From the IMG/VR virus record IMGVR_UViG_3300048861_000178, positions 1 through 64,000 of that record: 64,000 bases of DNA; one strand, written 5' to 3'. The notes beneath the pieces were generated by a model, which saw only the letters and a list, made by a program, of their open reading frames with translations, searched no databases and was not told the origin of the DNA. A program made the translations under genes and the position numbers. Every line of letters starts with the position of its first letter. Position 1 is the first letter of the stretch. Positions 730 through 62,829 of this stretch are shown here, one piece after another. This stretch comes from a virus. Lineage: Duplodnaviria > Caudoviricetes.

Positions 730-1188
730 TTACACAGGTACTACTCCCCGATAAATCCCCACCGGTAAATCGATCGGTCCAAAACAGCGCTGGATGATCG
801 GCCTTACCTTGTCCCAGGGCAGATCCACGTCACCGTAACCGATTTCGTTGATCGCCATGGACGAGATGCCATGCTGATGGTAGCTGGTGGCCACTACCAT
901 CAGGCTTTCTTCAAGATACTCGAGCTTCTCTTCAGCACTGTAGCGAGAGTGCTGCTTCATCGGCATGCAGACGATCTTGCGTACGTCCGATACATCGTAG
1001 ACGAATACGCTATCGTTTTCGAAGATGCCCTTCTTCATGGCCCAGCAATACGCTTTAAAGAGTCCGGGAAAGCCATAGCGAAACGCCGCAGGCAAACCCC
1101 CGCCTCCGACGGCGTCGATGTTGATGGGCGTGAGAAGGGCCTGCTCTTCTGCACGTAATTGTTCGCGCTCTGCTTCGTAGATGATCAT
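730..1188 (-). CDS. divergent macrodomain protein (paralog of the adjacent DarG-like gene)
   Basis: Collinear with 1205-1657 (MIIY start, FPGLF, FVYDV, PxK, W..VRP.I, PI.LPVGI); start moved to ATG 1188. Confidence 0.75.
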   Translation of the reverse strand: MIIYEAEREQLRAEEQALLTPINIDAVGGGGLPAAFRYGFPGLFKAYCWAMKKGIFENDSVFVYDVSDVRKIVCMPMKQHSRYSAEEKLEYLEESLMVVATSYHQHGISSMAINEIGYGDVDLPWDKVRPIIQRCFGPIDLPVGIYRGVVPV

Positions 1189-1204
1189 CGTCGTTCCCAG
1201 CCAG

Positions 1205-1657
1205 TTAGACTGCAAAGGGGCTTAAACAAATCCCCACTGGTAACGCGATAGGGTCCAGGTACTGATAGATCAGCGGGCGCACATCTGCCCAGCCTAACTG
1301 ACCTCGCCCGCAGCCTACCTCAGGAATCGCCAGTGAGGTAATCCCGTAGTTCTCATACTCTCTCGATAGATACCAAAGACCTTCTTCAATCCATTCCAAT
1401 CTGGAAGGATGACGCCATTCTCGCTTAGTCGGCAAACACAACACCTTGCGCGAAGCGTCAACGTCGTACACGAAGAAACCACGTCGCGTAAACACCTCTT
1501 GCTGGCACGCCTCGCGGTACTCTTCAAACAGACCCGGAAAGGTACTGCGAAAAGCCAGTGCTAAGCCAGCACCCATCACACCTTGCGTGTTAACGGGATT
1601 AACGAGCGTTTGCTCCGTTACTTCAAAGATGTTACGCGGTTCATCGTAAATGATCAT
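1205..1657 (-). CDS. macrodomain ADP-ribosylglycohydrolase, DarG/TARG1 (Poa1p)-like
   Basis: Motifs LVNPVNTQGVMGAGLA, LPTKREWRHPSRLEWIEEGL and SLAIPEVGCGRGQLGW match the DarG-type macrodomain. Confidence 0.85.
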   Translation of the reverse strand: MIIYDEPRNIFEVTEQTLVNPVNTQGVMGAGLALAFRSTFPGLFEEYREACQQEVFTRRGFFVYDVDASRKVLCLPTKREWRHPSRLEWIEEGLWYLSREYENYGITSLAIPEVGCGRGQLGWADVRPLIYQYLDPIALPVGICLSPFAV

Positions 1658-1669
1658 TGACGGCCCCGG

Positions 1670-2089
1670 TTAGTGCGGTGGTGGAGTCATGCCGCCGTTC
1701 TGAGATGCCAGCCCGGCGACTCGGTCCTCTAGGGCCTTGCCTTCCTTCACCAGTGTTGCGGTCTTATCCCGCAACACCTTGTCTGCGAGCTCCAGAATAT
1801 CCAGCACCATGTGGCGCGGATAGTTCAGAAAGACATGGAGCGGATCGTGTGTCACATCCCACACGTGTCGATCGTGATATTGCCTGATGCGCTCGGCCAG
1901 ATGACTACCCGTGTATGAATCCTCACGTGAATGCATCCGGATAAGGGCTAAGGGATTCCTCTCGAAATCAGAGATGTCGTGATTGTAAATCCCAAAGTCC
2001 GTCTCGTAGCGGTGCAGCAACAACTGTCGCGTGTCGGTCACGCACATCTTGGGCGCGCTGGCAATGAGTTCGCTCAGCTTCGCGACCAC
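1670..2089 (-). CDS. phiKZ gp76-like protein; probable -1 frameshift extension of the upstream ORF
   Basis: Weak GTG start; frame stays open upstream to a TGA at 2198-2200, across the T7 slippery site; position matches phiKZ synteny (from memory). Confidence 0.7.
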   Translation of the reverse strand: MVAKLSELIASAPKMCVTDTRQLLLHRYETDFGIYNHDISDFERNPLALIRMHSREDSYTGSHLAERIRQYHDRHVWDVTHDPLHVFLNYPRHMVLDILELADKVLRDKTATLVKEGKALEDRVAGLASQNGGMTPPPH

Positions 2090-2133
2090 ATCGACATGCT
2101 CGCCAAAGAATGGGTGACCGACGTGTTTTGCAA

Positions 2134-3762
2134 CTAGCTGCGCGCCCGGATCTGCGAGACCTTCTGGTCGAGTAGGGTAAAAAAAGTTGCCATCGCATCA
2201 ATCGGCAGCAAGCGCGGCCAGCGCGGATACTTCTGTTCTTCGCTGGCAGCCACCGTCGGCACGGCGATCATCGAGACCGTCGTATCTTCGATGTACTTCA
2301 CCACTGCATCCACGAACTTGTTGCGAATCGTGTCGTCAGCGGAGAGTGCGTCGATCGTCTGGTCGATGGTTTCCGGGTCTTCGACAATCGCGCCGTTCGA
2401 GAGCTCGATCGATTCGATCCAATGCCCGTACTGACGCATGTAGGTGGCCTGGCCCTGTTCGTAGATAAAGCGGTTACGCTCATCGACGTCTTGTTCCATG
2501 CCAAACACCTGGTCCGTCATCACGACGATCCCGTTAACCCACTTCTGGCCCGAGGCGATATGCTCGGCAAGCGTCGGTACCTTCAGCGTGATCGCGACCT
2601 TATCGGTGACTTGCACCTTACGCGGCGTCTGATTCAGGAACTCCTCGCGGTACTTCTTGATCGAGTCGTCCGTCATCGAGCCGGTCGTCACCGAGGTCAT
2701 GTGGTTGATCTGCCACTTCGACAGTTGCGACGTATCGGTAAACTGCAGCTTGCCGATGGCGATCTTGTCCTTCACCACCTTGTTCTGCGCGTCGGTTTCA
2801 CCCAGCACCGAGCGCACGTACTGGAAACCCGTCGGCCAGATGGCCGTGGCCAGGCCCCACGCCAGATGCTGGATGTCGTGCGAGACGATCTTGGAGAAGA
2901 TGTTCTCCTTGTTACGCAGCGACGTGTCGTACAGATGACGGATGGCAAATTCGACCAGGTACTCGGCAATGAACACCGACGTATTGGAAAAGAGCATGCC
3001 GTTGGTCATGCGACCGAGCAGCACCTTCTCGTCGGTAATGCGACGCTCCAGCTCCAGGATAGCTGCATCACCCGGTGTCTTCAGCGTAATGTGAAAGCCC
3101 GAGTGCCACAGCGGAATGCGGATGATGCCACCCAGCCCCACTTCTTGACGCACAGCCAGCACACCGGCTTCACCGCGCAGACTGACGCCTGCCGTATCGG
3201 CTTGCTTGGGACGCGAAGCCTGAATGCCGCCGCGCTCGGACTTGACCGCTTGTTCCCACAGCGAGCCTTCGCGCACGTCGATGTCGGTGAGCATCTTGCG
3301 CGGCGTGGCATTGCGGTAGCCTGCTTGGGCCACGGCAATCCATTCGCGGCCTTCAGCCGTCGCACCCAGATCGGTATTGGGCATCTTGGCCAGCGCTTCT
3401 TGCAGCTCGTCTTCACGTGCACCCGGCACAGCCAGCGTAATGCCGTTCGAATCGAACGCCACACCCAGCGGAATGAACACGGCCTGCTCTTGCTTGACGG
3501 TCGTCGTGTCCGCTTGCGGCAAGCGCTTGGGGGTTTCTTCGACCTTCAGTTCGCTGTCTTCCTGCGGTGCTACCGGTGCATCGCCCAGCGTATCTTCGGG
3601 CAACCCACCCAGCACTTCGTGTACGCCTTCCGAGGCGTCCGGTGCAGGCGGCTGGATCGACGCCGGTTCGACTGCTGTCGTGGGCGTGCGCAGTTCGGGC
3701 GGCACGTCTGCCGCAGTGGTCACTGACGGTGTATAAATGTTGCTGTTTTCTTGACCTTCCAT
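2134..3762 (-). CDS. phiKZ gp77-like conserved protein (putative tail/baseplate assembly chaperone)
   Basis: 542 aa; IPLWHSGFHITLK and EKVLLGRMTNG blocks as remembered for phiKZ-like gp77; located upstream of the vRNAP gene. Confidence 0.75.
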   Translation of the reverse strand: MEGQENSNIYTPSVTTAADVPPELRTPTTAVEPASIQPPAPDASEGVHEVLGGLPEDTLGDAPVAPQEDSELKVEETPKRLPQADTTTVKQEQAVFIPLGVAFDSNGITLAVPGAREDELQEALAKMPNTDLGATAEGREWIAVAQAGYRNATPRKMLTDIDVREGSLWEQAVKSERGGIQASRPKQADTAGVSLRGEAGVLAVRQEVGLGGIIRIPLWHSGFHITLKTPGDAAILELERRITDEKVLLGRMTNGMLFSNTSVFIAEYLVEFAIRHLYDTSLRNKENIFSKIVSHDIQHLAWGLATAIWPTGFQYVRSVLGETDAQNKVVKDKIAIGKLQFTDTSQLSKWQINHMTSVTTGSMTDDSIKKYREEFLNQTPRKVQVTDKVAITLKVPTLAEHIASGQKWVNGIVVMTDQVFGMEQDVDERNRFIYEQGQATYMRQYGHWIESIELSNGAIVEDPETIDQTIDALSADDTIRNKFVDAVVKYIEDTTVSMIAVPTVAASEEQKYPRWPRLLPIDAMATFFTLLDQKVSQIRARS

Positions 3763-3765
3763 CGT

Positions 3766-4329
3766 TTACTCCGCCTTCGGGTTGGTCTTATCGGCCGCGG
3801 CGATCCCGGCGGCGAGCGTGTCGGTGTGCTTGCTCGACTCGGTCACTTCGACGTCCGTAATGACGTTCGGATCGAGTACGGCGGCCTTGGCGATCACGCG
3901 CTTTTCGACTTCGCTTGTGATTTCCATGATGTGCGCGAGCGTCGGTTGCACGTTCGCTTGCATGAGCGAGAGCCATGCGGTGTACTTCTCCATGATCTCA
4001 AACGAGAGCATGATGTCGTTCTCGTCGCAGCCGCCGCGCTTGTCCGAGTGCGTGCCGTAGATCATCGTGAGCTCTTGGGCGCGCTCGTTCAAGTCCTTGG
4101 TGAGGAGCTGAACGTTGCTGATCACCGTCTGGGCTTCTTGCTTGGAAATTTCCCCCTGGATGTCCGGGCGCTCGAGGATTTCCCCCACACCCAGATGCAT
4201 CAGCAGCAGGTTGCGGCATTCCGCATAGCGCTCATGCAGCTCGTCCCAGTTGCGATTCTGGCTGAGCTCGTTCTTCGCGTCCTTCTTGATCGCGTCGCGC
4301 ATCAGCCGACCCTGACTCTTCTTCGTCAT
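3766..4329 (-). CDS. hypothetical helical protein (gp78 position)
   Basis: Strong codon bias, abuts the gp77-like gene; ATG 4329 preferred over TTG 4341. Confidence 0.75.
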   Translation of the reverse strand: MTKKSQGRLMRDAIKKDAKNELSQNRNWDELHERYAECRNLLLMHLGVGEILERPDIQGEISKQEAQTVISNVQLLTKDLNERAQELTMIYGTHSDKRGGCDENDIMLSFEIMEKYTAWLSLMQANVQPTLAHIMEITSEVEKRVIAKAAVLDPNVITDVEVTESSKHTDTLAAGIAAADKTNPKAE

Positions 4330-4531
4330 GCTAAACCCCAAATACCGTTTTAAATGTTAAGTGCTATCGGATAGCTCAATCATCTGACTATCCTCGAAAA
4401 GAACGACCCCGTTGTGTGGTTCGATTTCACAGAGGACTGTAGCTTCCGATGACGTAATCGCCTGATTGCGAACATGTTAGCTACAGCATGGCGACCGCAA
4501 GTAATTTCTTACAGGGTTTCTGGAGCACCGC

Positions 4532-15079: not shown

Positions 15080-15135
15080 CGGCATAAGCCCTCCCCATTA
15101 CGGGGAGGGCGATTATGCTGTCCTCTTTTTTTTTT
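15080..15135. terminator. terminator at a convergent junction
   Basis: CGGCATAA-GCCCTCCCC...GGGGAGGGC-GATTATGCTG followed by T10. Confidence 0.8.
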
Positions 15136-22155: not shown

Positions 22156-22205
22156 GACATAAGCCCTCCCCTTGCGGGGAGGGTGTTATGACCGTCTTTT
22201 TTTTT
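22156..22205. terminator. terminator at a convergent junction
   Basis: CATAA-GCCCTCCCC-TTGC-GGGGAGGGT-GTTATGACC followed by a T-run; near copy of 15080-15135. Confidence 0.8.
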
Positions 22206-62760: not shown

Positions 62761-62829
62761 CGGAGGCGTGGGCGAAGAGTGTCCTGACCGACACTCTTTT
62801 TTTTGTCTTATTACAAAAGAAGCTGGCGA

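Follow-up and report, generated by a model that had tools for sequence, protein, structure and literature searches.

Comparative evidence for a programmed -1 shift joining the phiKZ gp077- and gp076-like genes of jumbo phages, with a probable link to T4 tail-hub assembly chaperones

Programmed -1 frameshifting is known from the tail-assembly chaperone genes of phages. In lambda, a -1 shift fixes the ratio of the short (G) and extended (GT) forms of a non-structural assembly chaperone; the slippery site is G_GGA_AAG, and Xu, Hendrix and Duda reportedly described in 2004 a low-level shift whose site is conserved in very divergent phages. Phage P2 makes E and E+E', two products with a common N-terminus, by shifting -1 on a run of T (TTTTTTG) without downstream RNA structure (PMC3091744). 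Escherichia coli dnaX also gives two products per gene, tau and gamma, by bacterial translation of a homopolymeric heptamer, A_AAA_AAG, flanked by an upstream Shine-Dalgarno (SD)-like element and a downstream hairpin (PMC5009743). Here we analyse a window of 64,000 nucleotides (nt), positions 1 to 64,000 of the IMG/VR virus record IMGVR_UViG_3300048861_000178, and in it a minus-strand pair of open reading frames (ORFs) resembling gp077 and gp076 of phage phiKZ. The genome is that of a 315-kb jumbo phage whose nearest GenBank relative is Burkholderia phage FLC9 (~75% DNA identity). From the comparison of sequences across the family, we conclude that programmed -1 recoding makes two proteins from this pair family-wide, here a 542-amino-acid (aa) protein and a predicted fusion of ~697 aa.

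An earlier reading of the window from its letters alone (the sequence-only reading) had assigned the two ORFs to the phiKZ gp077 and gp076 families, and homology searches agree. The 542-aa ORF matches phrog_4585 (E = 3.6e-97) and the ORF in the -1 frame matches phrog_12109 (E = 5e-26), the latter match beginning at residue 24 of the -1 frame, 13 codons 5' of a GTG at 2089. According to the PhiPA3 annotation notes, the pair corresponds to PhiPA3 gp074/gp073, 201phi2-1 gp136/gp135 and phiKZ gp077. The last of these is equivalent to Goslar gp081 and RAY gp267 and represents Chimalliviridae core gene cg18, labelled 'hypothetical protein' (PMC10299810 supplement).

Re-reading the minus strand reproduced every coordinate and sequence of the sequence-only reading, from the T7 run (A7 at 2179-2185 on the other strand) 14 codons ahead of the stop to the -1 frame that opens at the TGA at 2198-2200 and offers only a weak GTG lacking a clear ribosome-binding site (RBS). 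The ORF reads GCA ACT TTT TTT ACC at this point, Phe527-Phe528 lying 14 codons 5' of its stop. The open -1 frame extends over 175 codons, from TGA 2198-2200 to TAA 1670-1672, and the GTG at 2089 is the sole ATG, GTG or TTG among its first 44 codons. Recomputing the predicted fusion as residues 1-528 plus 169 residues from 2179 again gave 697 aa, with ...MATFFYPTRPEG as the predicted junction and ...ATFFYPTRPEGLADPGAQLVAK as the predicted junction peptide for this phage; in phages of the phiKZ type the predicted junction is ...TFF|Y.... The run itself is unusual for its surroundings: it is the only homopolymer of at least seven inside coding DNA in the window, the other five being intergenic, and only 1 of 20 Phe-Phe dicodons in the window's long ORFs, the slip site, is TTTTTT. 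Phe codons in these ORFs are 35% TTT and 65% TTC. Features of the locus are collected in Table 1.

Table 1. Features of the gp077-gp076 locus in the window and, in the last three rows, annotated gp076 homologues at the loci named there
Feature	Position	Strand	Remark
gp077-like gene in frame 0 (P0001)	2134..3762	minus	542 aa; ATG start, TAG stop
Frame-0 TAG stop, ends the short product	2134..2136	minus	sequence reading
Slippery run T_TTT_TTT (A7 on plus)	2179..2185	minus	third base of Thr526, Phe527, Phe528
TGA stop of the -1 frame, from a conserved Asp codon (ATT GAT)	2198..2200	minus	upstream limit for the putative shift
-1-frame extension, gp076-like domain (phrog_12109)	1670..2179	minus	169 codons + TAA; would read Y-P-T-R-P-E... 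after the slip
Conserved gp076 motif K-H-V-G-H-P-F-F-G	2102..2128	minus	H, F and G nearly invariant; 3' of the frame-0 stop, 5' of canonical starts
GTG, first canonical start in the -1 frame	2087..2089	minus	RBS not evident; its use would remove the conserved N-terminal motif
Predicted gp26/gp51-like domain (PF12322), residues ~211-536	2155..3132	minus	profile, fold and ESM Atlas; ends at conserved ..FF.LL
gp078-like ORF, 191 aa, upstream of the gp077-like gene	3766..4341	minus	syntenic in 31/32 lineages; unrelated to gp26/gp51
gp076 homologue, Simmy50 (L040)	2601-3149		overlaps gp272 (gp077 homologue) by 136 nt
gp076 homologue, PA7 (L041)	3036-3278		cut to 80 aa
gp076 homologue, RP31 (L002)	2561		start ATG overlaps the stop (TGATG)

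To compare the junction between phages, we assembled 53 loci that fall into 32 clusters (lineages) below 60% aa identity and extend down to ~20% identity to the query. Seven GenBank phages were found via the gp076 part, and 27 IMG/VR contigs by a peptide pattern on the FF motif, which is biased to FF but not to the codon. The third group is motif-independent and unbiased: 18 very diverse GenBank Chimalliviridae obtained by whole-protein tblastn, including LucasX, SPFM2, Xoo-sp14, SA002, Simmy50, PA7 (phiKZ-like), Viktualia, FBKp24, pVa-21, Goslar, Moabite, CR5, JM-2012 and two Vibrio phages. At all 53 loci, a run of five to eight T falls on the same conserved Phe-Phe, 10-39 codons 5' of the stop. 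TTT encodes the first Phe in 31 of 31 clusters, and the second codon of the run is TTT in 24, TTC in 6 and TTG (Leu) in 2; for other conserved two-fold-degenerate codons (Asp, Cys, Gln, Tyr, His), the share of the commonest codon is only 55-73%. Because the preceding wobble base is T in 25 of 32 clusters, these carry an in-phase T_TTT_TTT, T_TTT_TTC or T_TTT_TTG heptamer. On these codon counts, amino-acid conservation cannot explain the first-codon TTT or the preceding T.

The position of the run relative to both frames is also maintained. Its length varies between close relatives by substitution and not by insertion or deletion (ACT TTT TTT in the window, ACG TTT TTT in FLC9), and the frame relation is thus kept. 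In 12 of the 32 clusters, the conserved Asp codon (xxT GAy) supplies a -1-frame stop 5 codons upstream of the run's end, which would confine the shift to a few codons around it. One clade is laid out differently: in KpXa_1, FBKp24 and Moabite (L043, L044, L047), 39 codons separate the T7 from the frame-0 stop, compared with 10-23 otherwise, and the two frames overlap by ~130 nt with the -1 frame open throughout.

Downstream of the run, 32 of 32 clusters keep an uninterrupted -1 frame as far as the end of the gp076-like ORF, and the family-wide junction alignment strongly supports the -1 fusion proposed in the sequence-only reading. The gp076 N-terminal motif, H-V-x-x-P-x-F-G, has nearly invariant H21, F27 and G28 (alignment A2), and in 15 of the 21 lineages where it is recognisable, no ATG, GTG or TTG precedes it; first start codons occur as far as +221 nt (PA7) and +368 nt (L011) beyond the frame-0 stop. 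Between the stop and the first start, substitutions in close pairs number 57/39/101 at -1-frame codon positions 1/2/3, a protein-coding signature for this pre-start region. A gp076 that lacks a start ahead of its conserved N-terminus in many lineages would be made mainly or only as an extension of gp077.

An alternative explanation is that gp077 and gp076 are two separate genes, gp076 starting at GTG 2089, at a non-canonical codon or by re-initiation, and the T-run being a by-product of encoding Phe-Phe-Thr-Leu. All GenBank annotations treat the pair in this way, and part of the -1-frame likeness within the overlap (FFYP) follows automatically from frame-0 conservation. A few lineages do have an ATG right after the gp077 stop (RP31, TGATG; the L026-L033 group, at +26); there, independent initiation may add to gp076 expression, which tells against the fusion as its only source. 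However, two separate genes leave the TTT in 31 of 31 clusters and the preceding T in 25 of 32 unexplained, and the FF of T4 gp26 is encoded TTC TTT. Nor do they account for conserved coding-type sequence 5' of any start in 15 of 21 lineages, or for a -1 frame open in 32 of 32 when the +1 frame over the same span is open in 9 of 32 and closed in 23. The annotations themselves disagree on the gp076 homologue in Simmy50, PA7 and RP31: to reach a start, annotators truncated it in PA7 and accepted a 136-nt overlap in Simmy50. These conflicts look like symptoms of an absent start codon. Taken together, the sequences make two independent genes distinctly improbable.

Homopolymers are classic places for indel errors, and one might suspect that what is truly a single in-frame ORF was split by faulty sequencing or assembly, or was broken recently. 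The comparative data exclude this, as 53 independently sequenced loci share the frame break, and 101 metagenomic gp077 homologues (420-604 aa, available as proteins only), each ending 13-22 residues past FF, imply it too. None of the 101 is an in-frame gp077-gp076 fusion. Longer relatives of the gp076 part, among which a natural in-frame fusion would fall, were likewise sought and not found, although this is weak evidence. Moreover, conservation extends to the frame-0 tail, FFTLLxQKxxxIxxR, which forms the end of a helix in the model. The conserved tail and the lack of in-frame fusions suggest that both products are under selection; such a lack is expected if the two products and their ratio matter.

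We propose the following sequence of events. Most ribosomes would read T_TTT_TTT in frame 0 and continue to the stop at 2134-2136, yielding the 542-aa protein, whose last 14 residues are predicted to complete the conserved C-terminal helix. A minority would shift one base backwards on the U-run, and tRNA-Phe would find a perfect match in UUU again. Slipped ribosomes would then read UAC CCU... in the -1 frame and add the 169-aa gp076-like domain to give the fusion.

The N-terminal partner offers a lead to function. T4 gp26 and gp51 are classed as hub assembly chaperones, the latter missing from the mature virion (PMC3004832), and their family bears the NCBI name 'gp26 family baseplate hub assembly chaperone'. 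The sequence-only reading had suggested a structural comparison with these proteins, and three independent lines, profile, fold and language-model searches, link gp077 to their family, PF12322. A full HMMER search starting from T4 gp26 supplied the 131 sequences of a gp26/gp51 profile. Aligned by hhalign with the gp077 alignment, this profile matched over 226 columns with a probability of 95.9% (E = 5.1e-9), spanning gp077 profile positions 197-534 and the entire gp26/gp51 profile, and a second profile-comparison tool returned a probability of 95.0% (E = 3.9e-8). Controls remained at background, with E = 0.32 for a reversed template and E = 0.1-0.7 for the gp078-like and gp076-like alignments. 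The AlphaFold2 (AF2) model of the gp077-like protein (predicted local distance difference test, pLDDT, 74.6; predicted template-modelling score, pTM, 0.74; residues 1-86 predicted disordered) was compared by Foldseek with the predicted viral structures of BFVD. Outside the protein's own family, at least 15 of the models matched are called baseplate hub subunit, assembly protein or chaperone; these hub-type matches, proteins of ~250 aa, had E values from 5e-5 to 6e-2, target TM-scores mostly of 0.4-0.55 and ~280-330 aligned columns. In the ESM Atlas, clusters of PF12322 (T4_baseplate) made up 6 of 30 feature matches, with a score of 0.90.

Details of the alignment point the same way. Four Cys (PCxADxxKC ... 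CPxC), kept in 28 of 32 gp077 lineages, align with the Cys pairs of gp26/gp51 (C..C, CxxC) and presumably form a zinc site common to the gp077 lineages and the T4 proteins. The C-terminal GLxxFF of gp26/gp51 aligns with ..D..xTFF of gp077, that is, with the slip site. The gp26/gp51-like domain thus ends at FF, and the proposed frameshift would append the gp076 domain exactly at the domain's end. The hub of Goslar is very similar to T4's, and the Goslar virion structure paper names neither gp81 nor gp82 among its modelled proteins, a point on which gp81 resembles gp51. On the strength of these profiles, we regard the C-terminal two thirds of gp077 as a remote gp26/gp51 homologue, a distant relative and not a formal member of PF12322. 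Screens of related candidates were negative. The gp078-like ORF was rejected as a second gp26/gp51 paralogue (probability 0.1), and profile comparison showed no relation of the gp076 domain to gp26/gp51. A closer PF12322 gene was not found elsewhere in the 315-kb genome, a weak negative because the controls were silent as well.

Beside these likenesses stand clear differences. T4 gp26 and gp51 measure 200-250 aa and end 2-3 residues past FF; gp077 is longer by ~200 residues at its N-terminus and also has insertions, a tail of 14 residues and the extension added by the proposed frameshift. Part of the surplus is an acidic, Pro/Thr-rich segment (residues 1-86; 3505-3762, minus strand), predicted to be disordered (pLDDT about 30), which differs in length among lineages and has no counterpart in gp26/gp51. 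T4 gene 26 also gives two nested products, gp26 and gp26', but by internal initiation and not by frameshifting. We sought a slip site at the T4 gene 26/25 junction and found none: FF is encoded there by TTC TTT, with no T-run. T4 gene 25 does start in the -1 frame relative to gene 26 (TAATG), just past FFELL (L053; 3803-4429 and 3405-3803, minus strand), and as its sequence reads this overlap is ordinary coupling.

The locus can also be set beside the established two-form systems. The arrangement shares with lambda G/GT the -1 shift that would fix the ratio of a short and an extended chaperone, at a site kept in very divergent phages; the slippery site, fold, size and genomic position differ. 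P2 E/E+E' comes closer in its common N-terminus, its T-run and its independence of downstream RNA structure, but E, of 91 aa, is encoded between the genes for tail tube and tape measure, whereas the upstream product here has 542 aa and is encoded far from the tail genes. In dnaX the shift truncates the protein; that of gp077 would extend it, and the stimulators of dnaX have no conserved equivalent. No similarity of gp077 to the G/GT or E/E' families was detected by sequence or profile. The sequence-only reading had called the pair the tail assembly chaperone of jumbo phages, and this survives as a two-form protein remotely homologous to gp26/gp51, not as a member of the lambda G/GT or P2 E/E' families: there is no Pfam or PHROG chaperone match, the size is 542 versus ~100-150 aa, and the gene is not flanked by those for tube and tape measure. 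That reading had further likened the LHVFLNYPRHMVLDILE segment to T-part chaperone helices; this likeness gained no support: neither the gp076 model nor its profile matches anything known.

Several observations weigh against a ribosomal shift in a hub chaperone, beginning with the fact that the whole case for the fusion is comparative. Across the 32 lineages, neither a downstream RNA structure (mean z -0.57, with 5 of 32 below -2) nor an upstream SD-like element pairing with the anti-SD is conserved. A GACC-AGAA-GGTC hairpin does follow the slip site in the window, as the sequence-only reading had noted, but it does not appear to be a stimulator: its stem has 4 bp, the downstream 70 nt are no more stably folded than shuffled sequences (z +0.85), and GACC/GGTC is not kept in FLC9, the closest relative. 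Seven of 32 lineages lack the canonical heptamer, six having T6 in phase 0, (G/A)_TTT_TTT, and pVa-21 having T5; these would need single-tRNA slippage. On the proposed mechanism, the T6 phase-0 and T5 lineages would still allow perfect re-pairing of a single tRNA-Phe that slips on T_TTT. The missing stimulator fits phage chaperone frameshifts, since the P2 site works without structure.

The same observations can be read in favour of transcriptional slippage, in which the phage or host RNA polymerase would add one U on the T-run and so create the same gp077-gp076 fusion. The homopolymer is the sole conserved element, neither RNA structure nor an SD-like stimulator having been found. Six of 32 lineages have T8 runs, one base longer than a heptamer requires, and the T6 runs in phase 0 misfit X_XXY_YYZ. 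The genes of these phages are also transcribed by unusual phage multisubunit RNA polymerases. Bacterial RNA polymerases, however, slip efficiently mainly on runs of ~9 or more (reviewed in PMC5009743). Runs of T5-T8, down to the T5 of pVa-21, are short for transcriptional slippage. The T6C and T7C variants (T_TTT_TTC) preserve the logic of the heptamer and not a maximal run length, the run is never lengthened 3'-ward, and P2 uses TTTTTTG ribosomally (PMC3091744). We therefore consider slippage by the polymerase unlikely. Ribosomal slippage is favoured by the in-phase heptamer in 25 of 32 lineages, by T_TTT_TTC variants that keep its logic and by the perfect re-pairing of tRNA-Phe; the recoding, whose mechanism and efficiency we infer, is most likely ribosomal.

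The role in hub assembly faces objections of its own. Among 21 family members, Pfam gave no family at E <= 1; phrog_150, the PHROG family of gp26/gp51, reached at best E = 0.046, in 2 of the 21, and the PF12322 model itself did not match. In PHROG, the pair matches families of unknown function only. A single T4 gp26 or gp51 sequence aligned with the gp077 profile over a short C-terminal stretch only (probability 2-17%); it took the 131-sequence profile to bring out the relationship. The window's own clade (this phage, FLC9, L008 and L009) has lost all four Cys. Solved structures gave no clear match either: the gp077 profile found nothing below E = 0.3, and its model, compared with the PDB by Foldseek/VIA-align, reached E values of at least 0.36 and Z of at most 5.3; no solved structure of the gp26/gp51 family was among the PDB matches. 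Finally, gp077 is surrounded by early or replication-type genes, not tail genes, and its Churi homologue is among the early-expressed proteins (PMC11849849).

These last two points are in keeping with another reading, in which the recoding is ancient and family-wide but a gp26/gp51-derived scaffold with a long acidic disordered N-terminus was recruited to early infection instead of tail assembly. The ratio of short to long form would then be set by ribosomal slippage or by stuttering of the phage's non-canonical RNA polymerase. The Churi evidence is equivocal, because the early-detected list also includes homologues of virion proteins (PMC11849849). We regard recruitment to early infection as a minority possibility. 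With an N-terminal partner homologous to gp26/gp51, the pair most likely serves as a fixed-ratio, two-form, non-structural tail-hub chaperone, a role that we infer from this homology. The explanation that we judge best overall, and hold to be probable, is a ribosomal -1 shift that produces a two-form tail-hub assembly chaperone in fixed ratio.

The gp076-like domain offers fewer clues. Its AF2 model (pLDDT 68) is mostly helical, with a long C-terminal helix and, in the family, often a basic tail. Its profile found nothing below E = 0.3 among solved structures, and the model, searched by Foldseek against the PDB, gave E values of at least 3.2. HEPN-like leads from the ESM Atlas (0.86) were sub-threshold and were dismissed. 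In the window, the pair is neighboured by the gp078-like ORF and two macro-domain genes; relatives carry a helicase or DNA polymerase gene near it. The two ORFs at 730-1657 (minus strand) adjoin the gp076-like ORF downstream, and Pfam Macro was confirmed for 1205-1657. In Goslar, the macro-domain gene gp083 likewise follows the gp076 homologue gp082, overlapping its annotated end, and the linkage thus recurs in a distant lineage. Elsewhere in the window, four of the five intergenic homopolymers are T8-T10 runs (471-479, 15126-15135, 22197-22205 and 62797-62804), each preceded by a GC-rich hairpin of similar stem sequence (for example GGGGAGGG...CCTC TTTTTTTTT). By sequence, these four look like intrinsic terminators of plus-strand transcription.

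Frameshifting by -1 in phage tail-assembly chaperone genes is known; the protein family, its size, its genomic position and the phage family would be new. In the literature searched, whose coverage was incomplete, we found neither a frameshift nor a tail chaperone in phiKZ-like phages, nor a link between gp077/cg18 and gp26/gp51. The Chimalliviridae (phiKZ, PhiPA3, 201phi2-1, Goslar and others) are intensively studied, yet cg18 is still a 'hypothetical protein' (PMC10299810). Should polymerase stuttering prove to be the cause, it would be the first programmed transcriptional recoding by that phage enzyme. If our reading is true, a gp077-gp076 fusion of ~700 aa is a missing protein species in every genome of the family, and many gp076 annotations, now truncated or artificially overlapped, would be corrected. 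cg18 would gain its first functional lead, as a relative of the T4 hub-assembly chaperones gp26 and gp51. Frameshifting as the rule by which tail chaperones come in two forms would then reach a different protein family in giant contractile-tailed phages, and its holding beyond the G/GT and E/E' families would suggest that the two-form logic matters more than the fold.

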